NCBI GenBank assembly: GCA_030295235.1
Contig: AP026123.1
Span: 1,240,001 to 1,304,000 of the forward strand
DNA: 64,000 nucleotides
Direction of reading: 5' to 3'
From: Fistulifera solaris
Taxonomy: Eukaryota
Shown here: one piece after another, positions 11,306-62,083 of the stretch
Layout: each line of letters starts with the position of its first letter
Position numbering within the stretch: the first letter of the stretch is position 1
The notes under the pieces: generated by a model
Told to the model about the DNA's origin: nothing
The model's database searches: none
What the model saw: the letters and a program-made list of their open reading frames with translations, nothing else
Position numbers and translations under genes: made by a program

Positions 11306-11841
11306 TGCTGTTGTTAATCAGAAGAAAGATGGAAGCCATGAACAAGGAAAGCAAGGCAATTTTACTGCGATGCAATAAAAGAAAACGACGCATAAGCAAC
11401 CTTTACGATTCATGACTGAAATGCTTCAGTCGTTGTTAAGTTCAACAACACTATGGTCAATAGTCGAAACAGAAAACACCGACGTTATCAAGTGTGGCGT
11501 TCATTGCAATTGCTAGTGAAGTTAACCGATTTAAGATGAAGTAGATTCTGTCTTGCAACTTACAAGGCTACTCAGCAGTAGGTCGAACGGAGCATCATTC
11601 GCAACCAGGCTCGAAAAGATTATGATCATGACGAGTAAAGTCGCGCCTCGGGTCTATAGTGAGAACACGAAACACATTACGAGGCGGAAATGATGGTCAT
11701 TCAAGTGTGTGAACAATTAACTGATTGCTTCAAGTGTAGCAAAAACAGAGAAAGAAAGAAGCAAGCTGAATATATTCGTTTAAAACACACTTAATTGACT
11801 TGGAACTACCCTTCGTGTCAATTGAATCATAAAATCAAAGC

Positions 11842-13453
11842 TTAGAAGCACTTTCGGTGCACGATGGAAGGACCAGACTCGTCGTATTCTTCCTTGCTGA
11901 TCCACATGCTCTGGAAAGTAGAGAGAGACGCCAAAATGGAACCTCCGATCCACACGGAGTATTTGCGTTCCGGAGGAGCCACAATCTTGACCTTGATCGA
12001 AGCAGGAGCCAAAGCAGTGATCTCCTTCGACATACGCTCGCTGATACCGGGGAACATGGTGGTACCTCCGGAAAGAACAATGTTGGCGTACAAGTCCTTG
12101 CGGATATCGACATCGCACTTCATGATGGTCTGGAAGGTGGAGTCGGCAATACCGTCCATTTCAAGACCCGTCAAGTTGGGCTGGAACAACACCTCCGGAC
12201 AACGGAAGCGCTCGTTACCGATCACGATGATGTTACCATCGGGAAGCTCGAAGGATTTCTCAAGAGCAGAAGACTCGGCAGCCTTCTTCATCTCTTCCTC
12301 AAAGTCAACAGCAACGAAGCACAAGGACTCCTTGATATCACGAACAATTTCTCGCTCGGCGGTGGTGGTGAGAGAGTAACCACGCTCGGTCAAGATCTTC
12401 ATCAAGTAGTCGGTCAAGTCACGTCCAGCAAGATCCAAACGGATCACAGCGTGGGGAAGAGCGTAACCCTCGTAGATGGGAACGGTGTGGGTGACACCAT
12501 CACCAGAGTCCAAAACGCAACCGGTGGTACGTCCAGAGGCGTAAAGGGACAAGACGGCCTGGATGTTCACATACATGGCAGGGACGTTGAATGTCTCGAA
12601 CATGATCTGGGTCATACGTTCGCGGTTGGCCTTGGGGTTCTGAGGAGCCTCGGTCAACAGAACAGGGTGGGCCTCGGGGGCGACACGGAGCTCATTGTAG
12701 AAGGTGTGGTGCCAGATCTTCTCCATGTCGTCCCAGTTGGTAACAATACCGTGCTCGATGGGGTATTTGAGCGTGAGAACACCTCGCTTGGCCTGGGCTT
12801 CGTCACCCACATAGGCATCACGTTGTTCCATACCAACCTACAAGCGCAAGACGAAGCAAAGGCGAAAGGCAAGAAGAGAAGTAAAAGAAGAGGGATAGCG
12901 TTAGACGTCGTTCAAATTCAAAGGGTGACACAGCTCTCGACAAATAGAAGAGCCACCGTCACCGTCGACGACTCACCATGATACCGGGCTGACGGGCACG
13001 ACCGATCAAAGAAGGGAAAACGGAGCGAGGGGCGTCATCTCCGGCGAAACCGGCTGTTGGAAGTCAAATAAAAGGTAGAAGAGGAAGAGAGGCAAAGTTA
13101 GAGAAGGTTTGCAAGTTTGTACGACGCATTGAATGTCGAAATGACCGCGTCATGCAAATGTCTTTTCGTCGCTCGTCAACAGTCAACGCGTTCCGTCTTT
13201 TTCGATGAAAGAAGCGTGAAATGACAGCAGCAGATCATTGCTGTCGACACAAATTGAAAGATGAAGGCTTATCGAGACAAGTCTTCACCCTTCAAAGATT
13301 GCGATCGCGTAGAAAAGCCGCCAGTCACCCAAAGACAGCTCACACAGACAACTGGTCGCAATTCGAAGCGACTTCGGCCGCTTTTGACTTACCTTTGCAC
13401 ATTCCAGAACCGTTGTCAACGACAAGGGCGGCAATATCTTCGTCATCAGCCAT
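11842..13453 (-). CDS. ACT: Actin, copy 1 (exons 13393-13453, 12977-13053, 11842-12837; 377 aa)
   Basis: [20 protein letters not shown] through [10 protein letters not shown]; canonical GT-AG introns give a 1134-nt CDS. Confidence 0.99.
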
Positions 13454-14245
13454 GGTGATAGTTTAGAGATTTGTTGCTAATACGAAACGTTTTTAGATTG
13501 CAGATCGCTTGGTCAAGCAAGTTTATGAGAGGTGCTTGATCTTTTTCGAATCTTGTCTCGTCGGCAACGTTCATCGATGACCGGAGCAATGACCTTTCTC
13601 ATCAAGATATCGGGTACACCAAGCTTCACAGTCAGACTTTCCGTTGAGAAATTTCCTAGACAAAAACGTTGCACAAGACCCTGTTTTGAACAAGATGTCA
13701 CATTCCATTCAAACCATAGGCTATTGAGTGCCGGTTACAAACATTGGACATGCGGTCATTATTTTTTAGCCGCTACCGTCTGTCGTCCGTCAAGCCTAAA
13801 CCCTAAACATACAACGAATGATAACGACCCTAACGCAACGACCCGAGAGCCTGCGAGGCTTGGGCTAGACCCGGACCAATGTAAAGAGGGTTCGACTATC
13901 AATAAATTTCCTGCTACTAACTGCTCTCAACCACATAGGAATCACTGAACTAAAATTAACGTAATTAGCTACAAAAATTGATATCAAAATGATAAGACGG
14001 CGTTGCTTTTCAAAATGGATTAGACAACCCTAGAGGAATTTCGCGCACTGGACTAACAAGCTTGTAATCTTAGCTCGTGCAACTAAAAGTGCAGCTAGAT
14101 TGGCGCAATCCCATCAGTATCGTCCCTGTTTATGCCCAATCTAAAAGTCTAGCAGCTGCTAGGAATCGAGTGACTGCCGCCCATAAACCAATCACAAACA
14201 GGTTGATATTAAACCAGTAGTTGGAAGTTTTATAACTTCGAACGG

Positions 14246-17168: not shown

Positions 17169-18183
17169 ACATATTGTTCTGATAATCGAGCAGTGATTTG
17201 GCATGTTCGAGTATAAAAAACACCAACCTCAATATGGATTTCGACGCTTGTCGACGCCCGACCCAATTTCACGTAAACCGATTAACAAGCATTAGACCTT
17301 TCTCGTGCATGCACAATTGCTGATTGATTGTAGAGTATCGTTGCTGGTTGATTGCTGTCTTGACACTGCCCCTACGTCGAGAAATGGCCATTTCAAATAC
17401 GTCGACCGGATTTGTACGACGGGCGACGGGGGCGTGTTTCTTCGAAAATGAAATGAGACGAGACGCGAATTCAGTCCAGCGACCTTTTCGGCGCTTCGAT
17501 AGCAAGCGGCAGTTCAATTACTGGAGAATAACATCGCAGGGTAAGTAGATGTGTGGTCGCTGGCCAAACATGCATCGGCCGTCTTTGTCGTCGTCGTCGT
17601 TAGCGACCGCTCCGCCATACAATGTGAACGAGGTTTGTTTTAGCTTCTAGTGAAACTCCATCGTCTAATCTTTAGAACAAGAATGATGATATGTTACAAC
17701 TCAATCTCTTAGCTTTGTTGGTAACAGTTTCTTTCATTATATTTCATTTACATTTATCGTGGACGGTCTTTGGTGTCTTTCGCTTCCTCCAAAAAATGAG
17801 GCAGAACATATCGGTCATTTGCGTCCAAGACAAAGCAAGACACGAGACGCGAGCCAAAAAAACCCAAGTGTGTCGTCTGCTCGTCTGTCGTACGTGCGCG
17901 CTCGCATCGTTTGATTGGATCGCTGCGTGGAGTGCGTACGTGGAGGCACCGTAGAAAAAGAAACGGTCATTGCGGTGGCCGCCAGCAGGGTCATTGCAAT
18001 GCTCAAGATCTTGGGAGTATGGTTAAGAAAGTACACTTGAGGCGAGCATCTTGGATCTTCGGTCCGGTGACTTTGGCCGCGCATCAATCCTTCGACCCAA
18101 AGCATCGCCGCATTCATGTCCATAAAAAGCAGCTCAACAGCACGACTTATCCACTTTGAAAGCAAAACAAGAAAACTCTTACC

Positions 18184-19795
18184 ATGGCTGATGACGAAGA
18201 TATTGCCGCCCTTGTCGTTGACAACGGTTCTGGAATGTGCAAAGGTAAGTCAAAAGCGGCCGAAGTCGCTTCGAATTGCGACCAGTTGTCTGTGTGAGCT
18301 GTCTTTGGGTGACTGGCGGCTTTTCTACGCGATCGCAATCTTTGAAGGGTGAAGACTTGTCTCGATAAGCCTTCATCTTTCAATTTGTGTCGACAGCAAT
18401 GATCTGCTGCTGTCATTTCACGCTTCTTTCATCGAAAAAGACGGAACGCGTTGACTGTTGACGAGCGACGAAAAGACATTTGCATGACGCGGTCATTTCG
18501 ACATTCAATGCGTCGTACAAACTTGCAAACCTTCTCTAACTTTGCCTCTCTTCCTCTTCTACCTTTTATTTGACTTCCAACAGCCGGTTTCGCCGGAGAT
18601 GACGCCCCTCGCTCCGTTTTCCCTTCTTTGATCGGTCGTGCCCGTCAGCCCGGTATCATGGTGAGTCGTCGACGGTGACGGTGGCTCTTCTATTTGTCGA
18701 GAGCTGTGTCACCCTTTGAATTTGAACGACGTCTAACGCTATCCCTCTTCTTTTACTTCTCTTCTTGCCTTTCGCCTTTGCTTCGTCTTGCGCTTGTAGG
18801 TTGGTATGGAACAACGTGATGCCTATGTGGGTGACGAAGCCCAGGCCAAGCGAGGTGTTCTCACGCTCAAATACCCCATCGAGCACGGTATTGTTACCAA
18901 CTGGGACGACATGGAGAAGATCTGGCACCACACCTTCTACAATGAGCTCCGTGTCGCCCCCGAGGCCCACCCTGTTCTGTTGACCGAGGCTCCTCAGAAC
19001 CCCAAGGCCAACCGCGAACGTATGACCCAGATCATGTTCGAGACATTCAACGTCCCTGCCATGTATGTGAACATCCAGGCCGTCTTGTCCCTTTACGCCT
19101 CTGGACGTACCACTGGTTGCGTGTTGGACTCTGGTGATGGTGTCACCCACACCGTTCCCATCTACGAGGGTTACGCACTTCCCCACGCCGTGATCCGTTT
19201 GGATCTTGCTGGACGTGACTTGACCGACTACTTGATGAAGATCTTGACCGAGCGTGGTTACTCTCTCACCACCACCGCCGAGCGAGAAATTGTTCGTGAT
19301 ATCAAGGAGTCCTTGTGCTTCGTTGCTGTTGACTTCGAGGAAGAAATGAAGAAGGCTGCCGAGTCTTCTGCTCTTGAGAAGTCCTTCGAGCTTCCCGATG
19401 GTAACATCATCGTGATCGGTAACGAGCGCTTCCGTTGTCCGGAGGTGTTGTTCCAGCCCAACTTGACGGGTCTTGAAATGGACGGTATTGCCGACTCCAC
19501 CTTCCAGACCATCATGAAGTGCGATGTCGATATCCGCAAGGACTTGTACGCCAACATTGTTCTTTCCGGAGGTACCACCATGTTCCCCGGTATCAGCGAG
19601 CGTATGTCGAAGGAGATCACTGCTTTGGCTCCTGCTTCGATCAAGGTCAAGATTGTGGCTCCTCCGGAGCGCAAATACTCCGTGTGGATCGGAGGTTCCA
19701 TTTTGGCGTCTCTTTCTACTTTCCAAAGCATGTGGATCAGCAAGGAAGAATACGACGAGTCTGGTCCTTCCATCGTGCACCGAAAGTGCTTCTAA
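18184..19795 (+). CDS. ACT: Actin, copy 2 (exons 18184-18244, 18584-18660, 18800-19795; 377 aa)
   Basis: Same protein as copy 1; canonical GT-AG introns 18245-18583 and 18661-18799. Confidence 0.99.
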
Positions 19796-19901
19796 GTAAC
19801 CTGAATGGTCAATATCTGCATCAGGAAGGTTGGAGTACCGTTGTGCTAGTAAATGGATTAGAAAAAATTATACATGTCTTCTTCAAGTGACTTCCTTAAT
19901 T

Positions 19902-37422: not shown

Positions 37423-38586
37423 TTATCTAATACCTTGATTTTTATTACCGTTGTATAAATGGTAATTGGTAAAGTTGAGCACGGGATTCAAATAATCTTC
37501 TGCATAGTACATTTCAATAGCTTCTTCTAGCTCTGCTGAAGAGATCGTCTCCTTGAGCTTATCATGAGCATTTGTAGCATGGTAGCGACCCACTCCTCCA
37601 GCTTTTGTTTGGAAGATGGAATTCTTGCCGCCTTTTCCCCAGCCGGATGCCCCATACCTTTGCCAAGCCCCAATTTGTCGTAAAAGCCGTTTTGCGTCGT
37701 CTGCTAGGTTTTCCATACGTCCAACAAAATTGATGTAAGACCAATACTTATCGTCTATCCTTTTCGCCTGGGGACTTTGCGAGAAAGTATACGATATGTT
37801 AGGCGAAAGATAAGGCGAATGACGAGATGTCAAGAAGTGGTTAACGAACCTCCAATGCGCATTATCGCATTTCATGGCAACACGTAAGAAGCTTTCCAGC
37901 GATCTACTGGCATCGCGGACGCAGTCTTCACTTTTACCACAACATTTTTCGCGCATGTAGTTGGGATTGCCCACGCCCTTGTCAAGATACGCCGACACAA
38001 GTCTTTCCTTTGGATCGCGCACGAAGATAGCCCTTGTCCACTCGGGTGAAGTCATGATCTCGTTTGCCTTTTCCAGCGGAAAATCATACAGATACTTCAG
38101 TCCATTTGTCTGAGGATTCCAAGGAAGCATGTTCACATACTCTTCCGTTGCCCAGTTCGAATAGCCCATCATTCGACGGAATAGTTGTTTCCATGTTGTG
38201 CACCCGACCTTTGGTATAGTGAAGAAGGCGAGCTTATAGCGTTCGATGATGATGGGTGCTGCGTCCCAGTCATCATTTTCGTAAATGAAGTCACCATATT
38301 CCACCAGGTTCTTGATCGGTTCCGCCGGGTTTACGATTCGATCATCGGGTATGCTCGAGTTGGTTGTATCTTGCAGATTGTCGTCGAAATGAACATTTTG
38401 AACCACCTCTATGTAGTCCTGTGGGCGCTCGTCAGCTTCCAGTGAATCAGCTAGCAGCAAAAGCCCCTGGTAGTTGGTGTAAACAGACACGACGACGATT
38501 GTCAAAAGCACAATGATTGCAACAAGAAAAGACTTCCACAACGATGAGTGTGAGCTCCTAGGCGAAGCTGGTGGTGAAAGCGACAT
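37423..38586 (-). CDS. Carbohydrate sulfotransferase (Sulfotransfer_2 family), type II membrane; in-frame intron ~37777-37848
   Basis: N-terminal TM, FFTIPKVGCTTWK (5'-PSB), FVRDPKERLVSAYLDK (3'-PB), HWR..Q, NFVGRMEN. Confidence 0.9.
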   Translation of the reverse strand: MSLSPPASPRSSHSSLWKSFLVAIIVLLTIVVVSVYTNYQGLLLLADSLEADERPQDYIEVVQNVHFDDNLQDTTNSSIPDDRIVNPAEPIKNLVEYGDFIYENDDWDAAPIIIERYKLAFFTIPKVGCTTWKQLFRRMMGYSNWATEEYVNMLPWNPQTNGLKYLYDFPLEKANEIMTSPEWTRAIFVRDPKERLVSAYLDKGVGNPNYMREKCCGKSEDCVRDASRSLESFLRVAMKCDNAHWRFVNHFLTSRHSPYLSPNISYTFSQSPQAKRIDDKYWSYINFVGRMENLADDAKRLLRQIGAWQRYGASGWGKGGKNSIFQTKAGGVGRYHATNAHDKLKETISSAELEEAIEMYYAEDYLNPVLNFTNYHLYNGNKNQGIR

Positions 38587-40095: not shown

Positions 40096-40515
40096 GTGAC
40101 CATGGCTGTTAGCAACGAGTTCGTGGTGCATTTCGCTCAGCGAGGACGCGCTGATGAAAGGGGAGTAGACTACAATATTGTATTCTTCGCACTAGTTACT
40201 GTGGGCAACAGAACGATTTCAGTTTATGAGAGAGACAATTACTTGGAAGCTCGAGGACGCGGTGCTCCTGCTAAGCCGGCACTTCAGATCCATTTCTCGG
40301 ACATTACCGTGCTAAAAGCAAAGGAACGGATTCGAAGTGAGCATGGTAATCATGTCGGAAGCAGGATTCGAATCTATGGCACGTTTGATCGGGGTCATAA
40401 GGAGCGCATCACCTTCAAATTGGACAGTGCCATCTTCACCCAATTTATGGCTCATCTGGAGTCGATCGAAAGCATTCGCGGAAAGGTAGTCCGTCACGGA
40501 ACACGACTTGCTTAG
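40096..40515 (+). CDS. Transposon cargo ORF (139 aa), unknown function, possibly PH-like fold
   Basis: Intact ORF inside the TIRs, convergent with the transposase; beta-strand-like pattern followed by a C-terminal amphipathic helix. Confidence 0.5.
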   Translation: MTMAVSNEFVVHFAQRGRADERGVDYNIVFFALVTVGNRTISVYERDNYLEARGRGAPAKPALQIHFSDITVLKAKERIRSEHGNHVGSRIRIYGTFDRGHKERITFKLDSAIFTQFMAHLESIESIRGKVVRHGTRLA

Positions 40516-55782: not shown

Positions 55783-56351
55783 GTTGATCTTGTTGACGAG
55801 GGCAGGACGCTGTTCGGGTTACTTGTGGTAAAAAAGTGAGATTAAACAATGAGAATGTGGATCATCGCATGTTGTGCGTGTGTGTTCTTTGTGTTGCGTC
55901 GATCGTTGCGGTTCATTTTTGTTTCGGAACAACAAAATTCCTCCTCGGTATCCGGCGGAAGATATGAGTACCGGTTTCACTGTTCATCCCCAGAGTCACG
56001 CCATATAGGTAGACCAGTAATTGACAGTTAAATTTGAAATGTAATTAAAGACCACTTGCAAACACTACACATTGAACGGAAACGACTTGCAATAAACTAA
56101 CTCTAAAACATATAGTTTATAAGCACCGGTTATTGAATGCTAGGCACGAAAACTGTTCACGTTCAAAGGCAAAAAGGTGTTTGCGTGTTGAGTTGTTGAT
56201 ATTTATTTGTGATTTGACATGTTTGCAGTTTACGCTATTGTCAAGCTTTCATGATAATACCCCCGAAAACAGTCCGCGCATTCATATGAAGATTCTAAGG
56301 AACTTACCGAGGACCAAGAAATTGGAAGGTATCTTCGACGTACAAAGGAAA

Positions 56352-57341
56352 ATGAATCCTTCTTTTCTATCGCTCTTGGTTCTAGCAACATCGTCTCTGG
56401 CGTTCTTCGCTTTGAACGTATATCAACTGAGTGCTTGGAATGCTTCATCTCGGGCGATAAGATCATCACAACAAGTAGAAACGAGTAGGATCATTCATCA
56501 TGTGCCGATCCAAATGCGGAGAAAAACACGGGGCAGACTCGTTCAACCCGGAGATTTCATTTATTACAAAGATGACAGACGATGGGATTCGGCGCCCATT
56601 GTCATCGAATCCCATAAATTGGTCTTTTTTACCATTCCCAAGGTCGGCTGCACGGTTTGGAAACAACTATTTCGTCGCATGGAAGGATATTCCGATTGGC
56701 AGGATCAAGACGGAGAGCGTCTGTTGCCGCACAACCCGAACGAAAATGGTTTGAAGTATCTGTACGATTATCCCATTGATAAGGCTAATGAAATCATGAC
56801 CAGTCCCAAGTGGACCAAGGCAATGATGGTGCGCGAACCGAAGCAGCGATTTCTGAGTGCCTTTCTCGATAAAGCAGTCAGCAACGATCACGCTCACATT
56901 ATGGGCAAATGCTGTCAGTTTATGGAAGATCCCCAGCAATGCGTTGATTCGGCGCAAACAGCGTCTGGATTTTTGAATTTGATTAAAACGTGTGAGGATG
57001 ATCATTGGAGAGCTCAGAACGATCGAGTGGACTACAAATATTGGCCTTACATTGACATGGTGTTGCATGTCGAGAAGGCGGAGGAGGATGCGAAAAGACT
57101 GTTACAGAAAATCGGAGCATGGGATGAGTTTGGTCAAACTGGATGGTCTAAAGATCATCAGAGTCCTATATTTGGCAACGCTGCTAAAAGTGCCGGCGAT
57201 CACGCAACCTGGTCGCAGTGGCAGGTATGGAAATGGTACACGCCCGAGGTGGAACGTCAAGTGGAAGCGTTTTACCGAGCGGATTACGAAAATCCGCTCT
57301 TCAATTTCACCACATACGAGTGCTTCACCTGTGTTAAATAA
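56352..57341 (+). CDS. Carbohydrate sulfotransferase (Sulfotransfer_2 family), paralog of 37423-38586
   Basis: Signal anchor, FFTIPKVGCTVWK, VREPKQRFLSAFLDK, DHWRAQ. Confidence 0.9.
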   Translation: MNPSFLSLLVLATSSLAFFALNVYQLSAWNASSRAIRSSQQVETSRIIHHVPIQMRRKTRGRLVQPGDFIYYKDDRRWDSAPIVIESHKLVFFTIPKVGCTVWKQLFRRMEGYSDWQDQDGERLLPHNPNENGLKYLYDYPIDKANEIMTSPKWTKAMMVREPKQRFLSAFLDKAVSNDHAHIMGKCCQFMEDPQQCVDSAQTASGFLNLIKTCEDDHWRAQNDRVDYKYWPYIDMVLHVEKAEEDAKRLLQKIGAWDEFGQTGWSKDHQSPIFGNAAKSAGDHATWSQWQVWKWYTPEVERQVEAFYRADYENPLFNFTTYECFTCVK

Positions 57342-57475
57342 TTAGTTAAAGTCATTTGTTGTTTCGATCAACTTCACATTCATTTGGTGAACCATGGGGG
57401 CTCTAGAAATTGTATACTTGTACTGGACAAGAACTACTGGTAACACGGAGAAAGTTAGCTCGTGTCAGTCTATCA

Positions 57476-57484
57476 ATATATATC
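57476..57484 (+). promoter_or_regulatory. TATA-like element upstream of the permuted tRNA gene
   Basis: ATATATATC about 20-25 nt upstream of the leader helix start (~57503). Confidence 0.4.
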
Positions 57485-57515
57485 TTTATGATCACTTTTT
57501 CAGCATCTCGTATCT

Positions 57516-57595
57516 TTCGAATGGTCACGTGTTCGACTCACGTTTGGCGCTTGTCCGAAGCGTCAATAGCTCAGTGGTAGAGCGTTCGATTGCAG
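57516..57595 (+). tRNA. tRNA-Cys(GCA): Circularly permuted tRNA-Cys(GCA): 3' half 57516-57551, spacer 57552-57559, 5' half 57560-57595
   Basis: 5' half: GCGTCAA TA GCTC AGTGGTA GAGC G TTCGA TTGCAG. 3' half: T TCGAA TGGTC ACGTG TTCGACT CACGT TTGGCGC T. All four stems pair, U73 discriminator is present, junction at 37/38. Confidence 0.93.
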
Positions 57596-57605
57596 GGCGA
57601 TGTCC

Positions 57606-57616
57606 TTTTGCTTTTT
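57606..57616 (+). terminator. Putative RNA polymerase III terminator
   Basis: TTTT-GC-TTTTT just after the tRNA trailer helix. Confidence 0.6.
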
Positions 57617-57758
57617 CGACGTGTTCAGTGCCAGTTGATGTCGCAAAGCTTCCTTTTAGGATTCCATAGACCGTTATACACGGATTGGCGATAGGCAAAA
57701 GTTATCATCTTCTCTTTTCGAAGTCGTCGGAAAATCCAAACAAAATGCTTTGACGACC

Positions 57759-59108
57759 ATGAGATTAAATCGACTTTTTCTTGTCAATCTTGTAGTCATT
57801 GTTGATTTGATCGCTTATTTCTACATCAAAGCTTCCTTTGGAGTCGGTGGTGAAGCTTTAGAAACAGCGCTTGTCAAAACGACTGAGGAGCAAACCGTGT
57901 CGTCGATAGAGTCAACAAACTTGGAAAGAGCCCATGAAAACGCCGTTCGCTCTAGTACCGGATCTGTGAGGAAATTCAAAGAACCATTGTTGCCTCATAA
58001 GGTCACCTATGCCCCGACGGGCGGGAAGCTTCCAGAGGACGGGTTTGACACGTACGACGAGACTGCATGGAATAAACTGGATAACGGAACATGTTTATTC
58101 GACGATGACGAAGAAGATCAAGCATTTGAATGGCAAAGGAACTCTCCGTACGCAATACTGTTAGGCACAATGAAAGGCGGGACACATGCATTGTCAGAAT
58201 ACTTGTGGCAGCATCCGCTGATAGCCGCACCCAAGAAAGTAGAGAAAAATGGCCATGAGCTCCATTTCTTCGACAGCCGCAGCTTTGAGAGAGGAAAAAT
58301 GGGAATTCCGAGAAAAGCCAATCAACTGTCTTACGCTATGAAAGTGCATAAAATGTACCCGGATTTCTTTTACACAAAAGAAAGTATGTATACGATTCAT
58401 GATTCACCACGATACCTGGTTTGGAGTGACCGAATTCCTGAAGCAATCATGTGTGTGACCCCTTGGTCGAAGCTAATCGCCGTTCTCAGGGATCCAGTCG
58501 AACGCGTGATATCGCACTATCGCTTTCAAGATCAAGGTAGGTCTCAAATCTCACGTTTCGTATGTAGTGTTCCGGAACGCATATTAACTCAACCGTTGCT
58601 AGCTCGATTTCGGAAAAACATACCTATGGTAGATTGGGAGACGTGGATACAGGATGACATTGAGCGGTTGAAACGAGCGGGAGTACTTCAAGATTGGAAT
58701 CGAGTAGATTTTGACGAATTTTCGGGCTCGGAAGCTGAACTGATTGCATGGAAGAAATATCTTCGGTCGCCTACCACCCAGATGATTGTTGGCCGTGGGC
58801 TTTACTCGCTGCAAATTGAGCATTATTTTGCGGCTATGGACAAAGTGGGGAAACCTCGGTCAGATTTATTGGTCATTCGGTCAGAGGAACTTCGAGACGA
58901 AACGCAGCTGGTCTACAATCGAGTTATTGACTTTCTTAGCCTTCCTCAACATGTCCTCGACGATACGGAAGCAAAACATGAGACTCAGAAGAGCTCTATT
59001 CCGATTCCAAGTGACTTGCGGAAACAGCTGGAAGAGTTATACAGGCCCTACAACCGGCGACTAAATGAACTTTTGGACTGGAACAACGTTTGGGATTACA
59101 ACAATTAA
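57759..59108 (+). CDS. Sulfotransferase (Sulfotransfer_1; heparan sulfate 3-O/N-sulfotransferase-like); in-frame intron ~58537-58602
   Basis: Signal anchor, ILLGTMKGGTHALSEYL.QHP, ELHFFD, SPRY, LRDPVERVISHY, RGLY, YRPYNRRL. Confidence 0.88.
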   Translation: MRLNRLFLVNLVVIVDLIAYFYIKASFGVGGEALETALVKTTEEQTVSSIESTNLERAHENAVRSSTGSVRKFKEPLLPHKVTYAPTGGKLPEDGFDTYDETAWNKLDNGTCLFDDDEEDQAFEWQRNSPYAILLGTMKGGTHALSEYLWQHPLIAAPKKVEKNGHELHFFDSRSFERGKMGIPRKANQLSYAMKVHKMYPDFFYTKESMYTIHDSPRYLVWSDRIPEAIMCVTPWSKLIAVLRDPVERVISHYRFQDQGRSQISRFVCSVPERILTQPLLARFRKNIPMVDWETWIQDDIERLKRAGVLQDWNRVDFDEFSGSEAELIAWKKYLRSPTTQMIVGRGLYSLQIEHYFAAMDKVGKPRSDLLVIRSEELRDETQLVYNRVIDFLSLPQHVLDDTEAKHETQKSSIPIPSDLRKQLEELYRPYNRRLNELLDWNNVWDYNN

Positions 59109-59123
59109 TGGGAAATATTGATT

Positions 59124-62083
59124 CTAAAGCGGTGTCATGTGGGTCAGTGCAGCACTCGTTCCGCTTTTCGACAAACTTACAGCACGAGCGTTCGTCCTCG
59201 CACGAGAGTGGTGGAGAAGATCGGCTAACAGAGCGCTTGCTGTTGAATCAGCTCCAGCACTCGGTCCCTGGACTACCAGAGGGTATGTCATGTGTCTATG
59301 AGTGAAGAAACGGACGCATTCACAGCTAGGCGGTGTCACTGCAAAAATGTGATGATCGGGCACTTCAACAAATCTGATGTCAACCTCACTAGTCGCTATA
59401 TCCACACTAGAAATCTGTCTGATAACACAACCCTTTGCCCTAGCTTCGTCTACGCGTTTCTTCACATTGTCATCTATCTCCTGTGTTAAGTTGAGGAAAT
59501 CAGAGGTTTCACCGAGTAACTTGTCGCTTGCCCCAAGGATGTCTTCAGTCTCAAGGTGATGAATTCCAAGCTCTCTGGAAAGAATCATAAGTACACGGGC
59601 AGTATATTCGTTATTCAAATCCTTTGTCGGGTCTTCTTCCATTAGACCCAAATCTATAGCCTCTTTAACGGCTTGGCTAAAGGAGCATTCACTTTGAAAG
59701 TCTGTTGATGGCGAAATGCCATGATTTCCGTCGGAATGTCCTTTGCTTGTCTGCTGGTCAAATGCGCTACAGCGACTTGTATCAGCGGGAGGAGAGACAC
59801 GAAACATGATGTAGGAAAGCGAGACAGAAAAGATGCCATCAACCCGACGAATCTTGTCGCCGGTATGAAGCAGTGTACGCGTGGTATTAATGATAGGCAA
59901 TCCTCCTCCGACAGTCACTTCACGGAGATAATTTGCCGACTGTTTCCCAAAGGCTTTCTCAGCTTTACTTATTTCGTTGCGTTGCTCCTTTGGTCCTGAA
60001 AGTCCAGTATTATTGGCGGTTACAACGTCAACACCCGCGCGAAGCCACGTCGCATGATACTTTCCAACTTCTTCGTCGTTAGTACAATCGAACACGACGT
60101 GATTCGTACATTCATTTCGAAAGAGACGCTCTAACAAAGTTGATATTCCTCCAGGTTTCGGAATGGCTTTATCGCCATCATGGGTGACCTCACTGCCGCC
60201 TGTTACGTTGTTGAAGGATTCCAATGTAATAGATCCAGCGCCGCCATCCACATCTTGTTCCAGGCATATTATTTCACTGCTGCTGCCTTGGTCAAGCACT
60301 GCAACTATTTGCAAGTCGACTTCGTAAGTGTATCGTAAAGCCGTGCGACGTTCTTGCAAAAGCTTGAGCAAGGAATCGCCGAGTTCATTCATGCCAATAA
60401 TAGCCACACGTATTGTGGTGTGCGAAAGGCGGAAAGCAGCGTGCACCGCTCTAAGAGCACGAGCGGAATCTTCCGCGCTCACGACAGCGGATATGTTCCG
60501 CTCAGAGGAGCCTTGCGCAATCGCCAACACATTGATTTTAGCATCCCCCAGGGCAGAGAAGAATCTCCCGGAAACACCTGTTTGTTGCGACATCCCATCA
60601 CCTACGGCTGCAATGACTGAGCAAGGTGCTTTCAAATCAATATTGGTGATTCGATTATTTCGTAGTTCCGTGGAGAACTCTTCTTCAATGGCGATCTTTG
60701 CCGCTTTGGCGTCTGACTCGACAAGCGCGAAAGTAACGGAGTGTTCCGACGACGCTTGTGAAATTAGAATGACGTTCACATTTATGGCTTCTAAAGAACT
60801 GAAGATCCTTCGTAGAATACCACGGACACCTATCATTCCAGAACCTTCAACATTAATAAGAGCCATGTTTTCGATGCTTGTGAATCCGCAAACAGCCTTT
60901 TCCTTGTTCTGCAAAGAAGTCGAACGAGTGAAGATCCGTGTGCCACGAAAACTGGCATTGAATGTATTGCGAATATAGATAGGAATCTGGGGCTCGGACA
61001 TGATAGCCGGTTGCATTGTTTTCGGATGAATTACTTTAGCACCAAAGAAAGCGAGCTCCATTGCTTCATTGTAAGAAACTTCATCGAGAACTTGTGCCAA
61101 AGGCACTCGGCGAGGATCTGCCGACAGCACACCGTCCACATCGGTCCAAATCTGTATACTGTTTGCCTGTAGTAGTCGACCCATAATAGCAGCCGAGTAA
61201 TCTGATCCATCACGTTTAAGAGTGCAGGCGACTCCATGTGTATTCGAAGCGACGTAGCCTGTGACAATGAAATGAAGCATTTTCTCCGTGTCGTCGCTGC
61301 TTCCTTGCTTTGCTTGAAGCTCCTCCTTGGCTTGCTGGAACACAGATTCAAGTTTTCTTAATGATTCGTCCCAAACGACTGCTCCATCCTGGACAGCTTC
61401 ATCTTCGTCAATGGTGATGACGCGTCGTGCATCCAAAAATACAAAGTCGTGATGGACCTCGCTCACAAGATCTTGCAAGGCATCCGCCGACACCACCTTT
61501 ACTTTGTTGGCTCGTTGATTGGATCGCTTCTGCAACAAAGCAGCTAAGATCTGCGCCGACCATACTTCTCCAAATCCTGAAACTAATTCACGAATGCGTT
61601 CGGCCTCCCACTTCATGAGCGACACTGTCTTGAGAATATCACTCACGTTGGCAAGATCTTGCTGTACAATACCCAGCAGTTTGTCGCGAGTTTCGGGCTC
61701 ATCCTGGAACAGAATCCCTAAGCACTCGTCGTGCTTGCGCAAGACGAGTGTGATGCATTCCTCTTGGGGAGCTTGATCACGCTTGGCGGCATGCTTGACG
61801 GAATCGAGCAAAGATCCGTGACTTTCGGCTTTCCACCCATGGCCGAAACGACGACTGCGAGATGACAATCTGTATTACCAAGCGATGATGACAGGGATAC
61901 GTCGCCGTTCGAATCGGAAATCCCCAACTGATCTTCGACGATCCGAGCTGCTCGAAGGAAGCATTCAGCATTTGCGACAGAGGTTCCGCCGAACTTGTGA
62001 ACTTGCCATTTGAGGCCATCAAACCCAACGTACGACTGTTGACTCGCATCTTCAATCGAAACAAGGCGCGACGAGGACGACAT
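59124..62083 (-). CDS. thrA: Bifunctional aspartate kinase / homoserine dehydrogenase; frameshift ~61810
   Basis: VHKFGGTSV, VVSAMGGKPKVTD, TLKRDGSDYSA, WTDVDGVLSADPR, EAMELAFFGAKVIHP, two ACT domains (ISQASSEHS; IAQGSSERNIS), VVTAN, TVGGGLPI, GPSAG. Confidence 0.95.

Follow-up and report, generated by a model that had tools for sequence, protein, structure and literature searches.

Permuted tRNA genes and the locus in Fistulifera solaris

In permuted transfer RNA (tRNA) genes, the sequence for the 3' half of the molecule is placed upstream of that for the 5' half. The accessible text of PMC3978253 lists 34 such genes in six algae and one archaeon. Apart from the archaeon, the hosts comprise a single red alga, a few greens and a nucleomorph of green origin, with no diatom or stramenopile among them. 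In PMC3978253, the terms diatom, Thalassiosira, Phaeodactylum, heterokont and stramenopile occur 0 times. Here we describe a 64-kb stretch of DNA from the diatom Fistulifera solaris, in the following called the window, in which positions 57516-57595 of the plus strand read directly as a permuted gene for tRNA-Cys(GCA): the 3' half comes first, followed by a spacer of 8 nucleotides (nt) and then by the 5' half. It is very probable that this locus is a functional type II (37/38) permuted nuclear gene for the cytosolic tRNA-Cys(GCA) of F. solaris.

The closest counterparts are the type II permuted tRNA-Cys(GCA) genes of Ostreococcus lucimarinus, Ostreococcus tauri and Micromonas pusilla (Maruyama et al., 2010, through the accessible part of Table 1 in PMC3978253). 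They share with the F. solaris gene the isoacceptor, the 37/38 junction and a relaxed helix-bulge-helix (hBH) motif. In both cases the gene is nuclear, belongs to a marine unicellular alga and has neither an intron nor an encoded CCA. The hosts differ. F. solaris is a raphid pennate diatom, i.e., a stramenopile with a secondary plastid of the red type, whereas Ostreococcus and Micromonas are prasinophyte green algae. The spacer measures 8 nt in F. solaris and 5-28 nt, without sequence conservation, in the family of metagenome loci described below, compared with 26, 38 and 12 bp in O. lucimarinus, O. tauri and M. pusilla, respectively. High G+C contents are expected for Ostreococcus and Micromonas. 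The flanks of the permuted metagenome loci have G+C contents of 0.32-0.49, and none of them is high-GC in this sense.

In Cyanidioschyzon merolae, 6 of the 11 permuted genes are of type II and spacers of 7-9 nt occur (PMC3978253, accessible text). The arrangement is that of F. solaris, the 3' half preceding the 5' half and the pair being framed by a TATA-like element on the upstream side and a T-stretch on the downstream side (PMC3978253, accessible text). Maturation through a circular RNA was shown in C. merolae, whereas for the F. solaris gene it is a proposed step. Furthermore, C. merolae uses four junction positions and a strict bulge-helix-bulge (BHB) motif, and its tRNA-Cys is not permuted, whereas in the diatom one isoacceptor is known so far. 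The permuted tRNA genes of Auxenochlorella were found through an incomplete tRNAscan-SE set (bioRxiv 10.1101/2025.02.07.637104, accessible part). Like those of the Bigelowiella natans nucleomorph, they have reversed halves as in F. solaris, but both belong to green-lineage genomes. Thermofilum pendens has permuted genes for tRNA-iMet and tRNA-Tyr with spacers of 7 and 1 nt (PMC3218864, accessible part). Circular permutation and a short spacer are common to it and F. solaris, whereas the T. pendens genes are archaeal, have their junction at 59/60 (type IV), encode CCA and contain extra introns.

The original prediction for this locus was aware of no description of such a gene in diatoms or other stramenopiles. 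Our literature search likewise found no such report, with Maruyama et al. (2010) covered through a summary only and the supplements of the EMBO J review and of the PlantRNA papers lying outside the search. Permuted tRNAs in diatoms are not mentioned in the accessible parts of a 2014 survey (PMC4033280), of PlantRNA and PlantRNA 2.0, which annotate Phaeodactylum tricornutum, of a 2022 study on diatom tRNA identity (PMC8975779) or of the 2025 Auxenochlorella preprint. A 2026 review of algal tRNA repertoires (PMC13578239) names no stramenopile in its accessible text. Since type II permuted tRNA-Cys genes are already known in Ostreococcus and Micromonas, the novelty is one of lineage, namely the diatoms, and not of kind. 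The finding is moderately rather than very surprising, and the comparison shows it to be real and well supported.

Structure of the permuted tRNA-Cys gene

The order of 3' half, 8-nt spacer and 5' half had already been claimed in the original prediction, and every element was found at its predicted place (Table 1). The 3' half comprises U38, the anticodon-stem strand 39-43, a 5-nt variable loop, a T arm of 5/7/5, the acceptor strand 66-72 and U73. The 5' half consists of the acceptor strand 1-7, U8 and A9, a D arm of 4/7/4, G26, the anticodon-stem strand 27-31 and the loop UU-GCA-G. By direct reading, the anticodon GCA is located at 57592-57594, G37 at 57595 and U73 at 57551. A script check revealed standard pairing in 21/21 stem pairs with one G-U pair, which is part of the acceptor stem. 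Together with direct reading, this confirms the pairing that had been claimed for the acceptor, D, anticodon and T stems, as well as U73. The usual conserved tRNA bases are present (U8, A14, G18 and G19, U33, G53, U54, U55, C56, A58, C61 and U73). The anticodon GCA and U73 are identity elements of tRNA-Cys, and the locus carries both, with U73 as discriminator. The spacer begins with TGT, so no CCA is encoded, and it contains no T-run. The longest T run inside the permuted unit is 3, i.e., there is no internal terminator. Rejoining yields a canonical cloverleaf that has the consensus bases of eukaryotes and lacks an encoded CCA.

For the identification of tRNA genes, we applied ARAGORN and the Rfam models. 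In the native order, ARAGORN finds 0 tRNAs in the window and 0 Rfam families reach the gathering score, in agreement with the earlier claim that standard tRNA scanners miss the gene. Swapping the halves in silico had been proposed as a check: with the halves joined by their coordinates, ARAGORN calls a tRNA-Cys(gca) of 72 nt, and a doubled (circularised) copy of 57516-57595 is again called tRNA-Cys(gca). A permissive Rfam search, which covered 57400-57720, gave two matches on the native sequence, both of them sub-threshold. The best one is YrlA (RF02553), which matches 57505-57606 with 33.8 bits (E = 7.6e-6; gathering score 69). The tRNA model (RF00005) reaches 22.1 bits against a gathering score of 29, and only the 5' half is properly aligned, to model positions 1-35. 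A score below gathering is expected for a permuted gene. A colinear environmental tRNA-Cys served as a proxy for the joined tRNA, from which it differs at 10/72 positions, namely position 38 and 9 positions of the acceptor stem. It reaches 66.2 bits with the Rfam tRNA model, as against the gathering score of 29. An upstream tRNA-Ala is all that Rfam detects at L063 and L009, two of the permuted loci from metagenomes.

Each half is single-copy in the window at ≤3 mismatches (0 expected from 100 shuffles). Therefore, neither half has another partner in the 57 kb upstream or the 6 kb downstream, and a colinear gene with a giant intron is ruled out within the window. A loose regular expression for a B box followed by an A box matched the target and two long, loose stretches of the window (40366-40460 and 59613-59684), which were read as chance matches. 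The second of these falls inside the reading frame of a bifunctional aspartokinase/homoserine dehydrogenase (AK-HSD).

Table 1. Position of the permuted tRNA-Cys gene, its flanking signals and further features in the window
Feature	Position	Strand	Remarks
TATA-like element TATATAT	57477-57483	+	33-39 nt 5' of the 3' half; putative RNA polymerase III upstream promoter
Leader	57503-57515	+	putative cut 57515/57516, equivalent of the 3' splice site
tRNA-Cys 3' half, positions 38-73	57516-57551	+	B box/T arm, acceptor 3' strand, discriminator U73
Spacer, 8 nt, TGTCCGAA	57552-57559	+	closes the acceptor stem; predicted removal by RNase P and tRNase Z
tRNA-Cys 5' half, positions 1-37	57560-57595	+	acceptor 5' strand, A box/D arm, anticodon, G37
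Trailer	57596-57616	+	putative cut after 57595, equivalent of the 5' splice site
Putative RNA polymerase III terminators in the trailer	57606-57609 (T4), 57612-57616 (T5)	+	direct reading
AK-HSD frame	59124-61868	-	99% and 96% identity to two NCBI Fistulifera solaris proteins
Sulfotransferase-family frame	37423-38586	-	
Sulfotransferase-family frame	56133-57341	+	flanks the tRNA gene
Sulfotransferase-family frame	57750-59108	+	flanks the tRNA gene
Inverted repeat, arms	11841-13464, 18173-19796		1,624 nt, 99% complementary, 4.7 kb apart
Actin frame in one repeat arm	11842-12831	-	Pfam Actin, E = 3e-127

Related permuted loci in metagenomes

Metagenomes were scanned with the exact 29 nt of the window's 5' half that cover positions 8-37, a query that catches colinear and permuted genes alike, and flanks of 600 nt were examined around the loci. 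The scan revealed 84 loci with 85 matches. A script assigned 53 of the matches to the permuted and 24 to the colinear form, left 7 unclassified and found 1 to be ambiguous. Inspection by eye showed that 5 of the 7 are permuted: the T arm is degenerate in L023 and L059, L027 contains indels, and the sequences of L039 and L042 are cut or damaged. L049, L057 and L084 were found to be colinear, so that the final tally is 58 permuted and 27 colinear matches. The 53 parsed permuted loci and the window contain 20 distinct mature sequences (19 metagenomic ones and that of the window), always with a mature length of 72 nt and the junction at 37/38.

For the analysis of covariation, 40 distinct rows were aligned together with their leaders and trailers (12 nt of either) and compared with a model consisting of the permuted cloverleaf and a helix between the leader and the anticodon loop. 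Standard pairs were found in 98.4% of 1000 cells, compared with 84.0% in column shuffles (0/500 shuffles as high), and sliding the partners by 1-3 columns lowers the pairing to 24-43%. The two strands of the acceptor stem are located on opposite sides of the spacer; this stem is 99.6% paired and shows changes on both sides in 7/7 pairs. In the T stem, both sides have changed in 4/5 pairs. The strand 39-43 is free to vary and yet invariant in the 40 rows. U38 and U73 are invariant in 40/40 rows, and the first trailer base is variable. The invariant U38 beside a variable trailer base places the junction at 37/38 and not at 38/39.

Two of the permuted loci (L023 and L059) have intact and pairing acceptor strands, together with a degenerate variable region and T-arm 5' strand, and are possibly pseudogenes. 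Seven metagenome contigs contain 2 or 3 permuted copies each, 0.3 to 3.8 kb apart (L011 and L012, L013 and L014, L020 and L021, L025 and L026, L038 and L039, L073 and L074, L076 and L077). ARAGORN calls of a tRNA-Phe(gaa) with an intron of 99-319 nt at L011, L012 and L047 were rejected as an artefact of tandem permuted copies.

Assembly of the locus and its closest copies

Public runs were compared as contigs, four in all, including X1 (coded organism A), X2 (a sediment metagenome) and X4 (coded organism B). X1 contains 96% of the sampled words from 57300-57800, and an X1 unitig of 81 nt covers exactly 57515-57595 with 0 differences. This unitig forks at both ends into two flank versions, one of which is the window. 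The other version has 138 different letters in place of 163 nt upstream, 2 differences in 57507-57544 and 6 in 57566-57625. It appears to be a homoeologous copy, in which diverged intergenic DNA surrounds an identical permuted unit. F. solaris was described as an allopolyploid with two subgenomes (PMC5935921, accessible part), and an identical core in two flank-diverged copies fits this description. The permuted unit is evidently under purifying selection. Judging by the structure of the graph alone, the X1 contigs seem to contain no colinear copy with the same 3' half, since the shared unitig begins at 57515 and not at 57516.

One X2 contig of 313 nt spans 57300-57577 with 4 differences, and in two more the match is confined to 57516-57595 or 57528-57595 and includes 9 to 11 differences. 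In X4, a contig covers 57516-57584 with 6 differences and 2 gaps. The pair 3:70 changes from G-C to A-U (57562 G>A with 57548 C>T) and the pair 4:69 from U-G to C-G (57563 T>C) in both X2 and X4, and a change of the pair 5:68 from C-G to U-G (57564 C>T) is among the listed X2/X4 differences. The spacer shows substitutions and indels in these copies, and the sequence before 57516 and beyond 57595 is unrelated to the window and to one another. These differences indicate that other organisms retain the reversed order, with compensatory change across the spacer. A misassembly as the origin of the reversed order, a concern raised with the original prediction, is refuted by the difference-free X1 unitig, the X2 contig across 57300-57577 and the 58 independent permuted metagenome matches.

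Transcription signals and flanking tRNA genes

In 46/47 distinct permuted loci, G37 is followed within 25 nt by the start of a T-run of four or more, compared with 354/1938 (18%) random flank windows. At the single locus without such a run, the sequence ends 9 nt after G37. In the window, the T4 and T5 runs start at +11 and +17 from G37. An upstream sequence of 70 nt was available for 40 loci, 8 of which have a tRNA directly upstream. Among the 32 permuted loci without an upstream tRNA, 24 show a TATA-like motif at -60 to -21, which was found in 171/1241 (14%) random flank windows. The TATATAT of the window is located at -39/-37. These signals match the TATA-like element and T-stretch of the C. 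merolae genes and also the AT-rich stretch that precedes tRNA genes of P. tricornutum at -30 to -40 (PMC3531208, accessible part).

In 30 of the 47 loci, including the window (57606-57611), the terminator T-run is followed by GC (TTTTGC), which may be a lineage-specific context of RNA polymerase III termination. A tRNA-Ala(UGC) ends 6-12 nt before the permuted 3' half in L009, L020/L021/L058, L025, L055, L063 and L070, and L033 has the order tRNA-Ala, tRNA-Leu(CAA), permuted tRNA-Cys. Closely related colinear tRNA-Cys genes follow 7-9 nt after tRNA-Ala in L006, L007, L010, L019, L046 and L069. A permuted gene behind tRNA-Ala may be co-transcribed from the internal promoter of the upstream tRNA. 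The leader of the window (GCATCTC...) was also considered as a relic of an upstream tRNA-Ala 3' end. This was rejected, since its local alignments to six tRNA-Ala-bearing upstream regions remain within shuffles (101-197 of 300 shuffles score at least equally).

Distribution among diatoms

Pfam was applied to 45 flank open reading frames and was informative for L008 and L009 only among the permuted loci. At L008, the C-terminus of an AK-HSD lies tail-to-tail with the permuted tRNA, ~150 nt apart. The protein is 88% identical to an environmental protein, and its nearest named matches are Chaetoceros sp. GSL56 (66%) and C. neogracile (62.5%). The AK-HSD and tRNA genes of the window are likewise convergent, with a sulfotransferase frame between them, and the linkage of tRNA-Cys and AK-HSD appears to be conserved. 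L009 adjoins an aldehyde dehydrogenase with 83% identity to that of Stephanodiscus triporus and 74-80% to those of Thalassiosira species, and its T arm is identical to that of the window. The flanking genes of L008 and L009 place these permuted loci in centric diatoms. On this evidence, the permuted gene is present in one raphid pennate and in two centric diatoms, of which one is Thalassiosirales-like and the other Chaetoceros-like. Further groups of the family probably belong to diatoms as well, namely M05, M10 and M17, which have the T arm of L008, M06, which differs from it in one pair, and M04, M07, M09, M11 and M12, which have the T arm of the window.

The permuted tRNA-Cys seems to be widespread in diatoms, and it is missed by standard tRNA finders. 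It is somewhat more probably than not ancestral to pennate and polar-centric diatoms. A much wider reading would make it the only nuclear tRNA-Cys in all diatoms, at an ancestral AK-HSD-linked locus and from the same permutation event as in prasinophytes. This is improbable, and its weakest element is a shared ancestry of the diatom and prasinophyte genes. Four environmental loci (L016, L043, L049 and L078) are colinear with the same 5' half and have a T arm that appears to be interrupted after GGTT/GTTCG by unrelated sequence. No ARAGORN tRNA was found in them, and the interruption may be an intron in the T loop, of the sort that red algae or nucleomorphs have.

Splicing motif and proposed maturation

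The original prediction had assumed splicing at a BHB motif. Among the 40 aligned rows, the leader positions n-5 to n-2 pair with C35, G34, U33 and U32 in 34, 38, 39 and 35 rows, respectively, which corresponds to 91.3% of cells. Typical family leaders are GCAA, GCAG, GCGA and GUAA; that of the window is GUAU. The leader positions n-1 and n form a 3-nt bulge with U38 beside the anticodon stem, and A36 and G37 are unpaired at the other cut. In the window, 57510-57512 (GUA) can pair with C35, G34 and U33, and the bulge consists of 57514-57516. The family pairing matches the relaxed hBH motif that was described for permuted pre-tRNAs of type II, both in green algae and in the Bigelowiella nucleomorph, and hBH is what the eukaryotic endonuclease requires beside the mature domain (PMC3978253, accessible text). 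A minimum free energy (MFE) fold of the window contains an outer helix of 57503-57507 with 57599-57603, and its acceptor helix extends 2 pairs into the spacer, leaving a 5-nt loop. A strong outer helix was found in only some of the metagenome loci (L003/L054, L036, L038, L048, L063 and L070).

The proposed maturation is taken from the pathway of C. merolae and green algae, in which an RNA polymerase III transcript is cut by the endonuclease, ligated into a circle, processed by RNase P and tRNase Z and completed by CCA addition (PMC3978253, accessible text). In F. solaris, RNA polymerase III would start downstream of the TATA-like element near -38 and run from the leader through the 3' half, the 8-nt spacer and the 5' half into the trailer, giving a single transcript that terminates at the T-runs 11-21 nt past G37. 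The tRNA body would fold with the acceptor stem closed by the spacer and the anticodon stem formed by the two ends. Pairing of the leader with the anticodon-loop bases 33-35 would then create the relaxed hBH motif, whose 3-nt bulge marks the site of the cut before U38. Cuts after G37 and before U38 are expected from the tRNA-splicing endonuclease, and a tRNA ligase would join G37 to U38 to an 80-nt circle. Excision of the spacer by RNase P and tRNase Z, and CCA addition, would complete a tRNA that cysteinyl-tRNA synthetase could charge by its anticodon GCA and U73. In P. tricornutum, introns were reported in tRNA genes for eight amino acids (PMC3531208, accessible part), which indicates an active tRNA-splicing system in diatoms. 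Homologues of the Trl1-type ligase are said to reach diatoms (PMC4090602, accessible part).

Evaluation of the functional reading and of alternatives

The functional 37/38 permuted gene of the original prediction agrees with all sequence-level tests applied here and is supported by the permuted layout, the canonical rejoined tRNA, the covariation and the flanking signals. The strict BHB motif did not hold and was dropped as a family feature, while its relaxed hBH form is backed by the family pairing. Several points weigh against a functional gene of this kind. In the window, 57513 opposes U32 as a U-U mismatch, leaving 3/4 central pairs, and the outer leader-trailer helix is not enriched family-wide (-5.45 vs -5.39 kcal/mol in cross-paired controls, p = 0.82). 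The energy of the window is -22.3 kcal/mol with the leader-anticodon helix and -24.7 kcal/mol without it, the MFE of -34.5 kcal/mol belongs to a different fold, and the fold z-score of -1.64 is weak. For the central helix in the window, it is the comparison with the family and not the energy model that argues in its favour. The D arm and the positions 27-37 are invariant by construction of the search and thus uninformative, which limits the evidence from the family. Anatomy, covarying conservation and flanking signals were observed, whereas transcription, the circular intermediate and decoding are steps that we infer.

A further group of objections concerns other tRNA-Cys genes. Colinear tRNA-Cys genes with the same 5' half and T arm are present in environmental loci (L001, L041, L062, L065, L068 and L082), and F. 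solaris itself may have a colinear tRNA-Cys elsewhere, beyond the 64-kb window. The published tRNA prediction for F. solaris comprises 76 genes (37 + 39) with 34 anticodon types and, according to Table S3, no tRNA-Cys in either subgenome, at a codon use of 7.59 UGC and 8.6 UGU per thousand codons in Table S1 (PMC5935921, accessible parts). This gap fits, without proving it, a tRNA-Cys that is invisible to standard software. However, the authors themselves suspect that their set is incomplete and blame draft quality, and tRNA-His and tRNA-Tyr are also absent from Table S3 in both subgenomes (PMC5935921, accessible parts). On balance, the permuted gene is somewhat more probably than otherwise the sole type of tRNA-Cys gene in F. 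solaris.

If the locus were a non-functional relic, a tandem duplication of a colinear tRNA-Cys gene would have decayed to its inner halves, and another, colinear gene of the genome would do the work. Permuted genes are proposed to arise when a tandem duplication loses its outer halves (PMC3978253, accessible text), some of the environmental contigs contain colinear genes with an identical T arm, and in F. solaris the search for a colinear gene was confined to the 64-kb window. A decaying unit is, however, hard to reconcile with 81 nt that are identical in two flank-diverged copies, with 7/7 acceptor pairs covarying across the spacer in the 40 rows, or with the enriched terminator and promoter-like signals. 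The halves also have no partners elsewhere in the window and the published table (PMC5935921) lacks tRNA-Cys, so that a relic is very unlikely. The YrlA match raises another explanation, a tRNA-shaped RNA with permuted topology that resembles Y RNA, does not decode and is no tRNA precursor. Inside an enclosing stem, the tRNA-like module of YrlA runs from the T arm through a closed acceptor helix to the D arm, the order of the F. solaris locus. In contrast, YrlA has no anticodon loop to rejoin and is a bacterial or phage family, and its 33.8 bits at 57505-57606 are far below the gathering score. The locus also has an exact and invariant anticodon stem-loop at its two ends (GCA, U33, G37, U38), a U73 that is invariant in 40/40 rows and a leader complementary to the anticodon loop as in splicing substrates. 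A non-decoding RNA is therefore extremely unlikely.

A functional permuted gene could also mature without a covalent circle. The spacer would then be cut first, and the paired halves would be trimmed and ligated at 37/38, in the order known from split tRNAs. The sequence does not fix the order of the cuts, and in the modelled fold the acceptor helix with its 2 spacer pairs and 5-nt loop could be cleaved early. Circular intermediates, on the other hand, were reported in C. merolae and the Bigelowiella nucleomorph (PMC3978253, accessible text), and the F. solaris anatomy is of the same type II form, which makes this order of events unlikely. A functional type II gene that matures through a circle is thus the reading followed here.

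Diatoms are a major, well-studied and genetically tractable group. If this reading is correct, diatom tRNA annotations made with standard scanners omit an essential tRNA, and diatoms must have a splicing endonuclease and a ligase that can process substrates with open ends. Transformable diatoms would then allow genetic tests of the circular-intermediate pathway and of its promoter problem. Colinear and permuted tRNA-Cys genes behind tRNA-Ala(UGC), as well as tandem permuted arrays, would provide material for testing the duplication-origin model. A shared origin with prasinophytes, if true, would be a rare structural marker of a green-algal contribution to the nuclei of red-plastid algae. Apart from tRNA-Cys, tRNA-His(GUG) and tRNA-Tyr(GUA) are candidates for further permuted or otherwise disrupted genes in F. 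solaris.

Host organism and genomic neighbourhood

The window is gene-dense with 43-49% G+C and encodes proteins of eukaryotic type, including ankyrin and KH proteins, sulfotransferases and the AK-HSD. Besides the two F. solaris proteins, the next named matches of the AK-HSD are all from diatoms (Mayamaea, Epithemia, Fragilaria, Skeletonema, Phaeodactylum, Nitzschia, Seminavis and Chaetoceros), which confirms the diatom nuclear genome assumed in the original prediction. The two near-identical AK-HSD proteins fit the two reported subgenomes. The sulfotransferase family is represented by three frames in the window, two of which flank the tRNA gene (Table 1). At a distance from the locus, the window contains a long inverted repeat with an actin frame in each arm.

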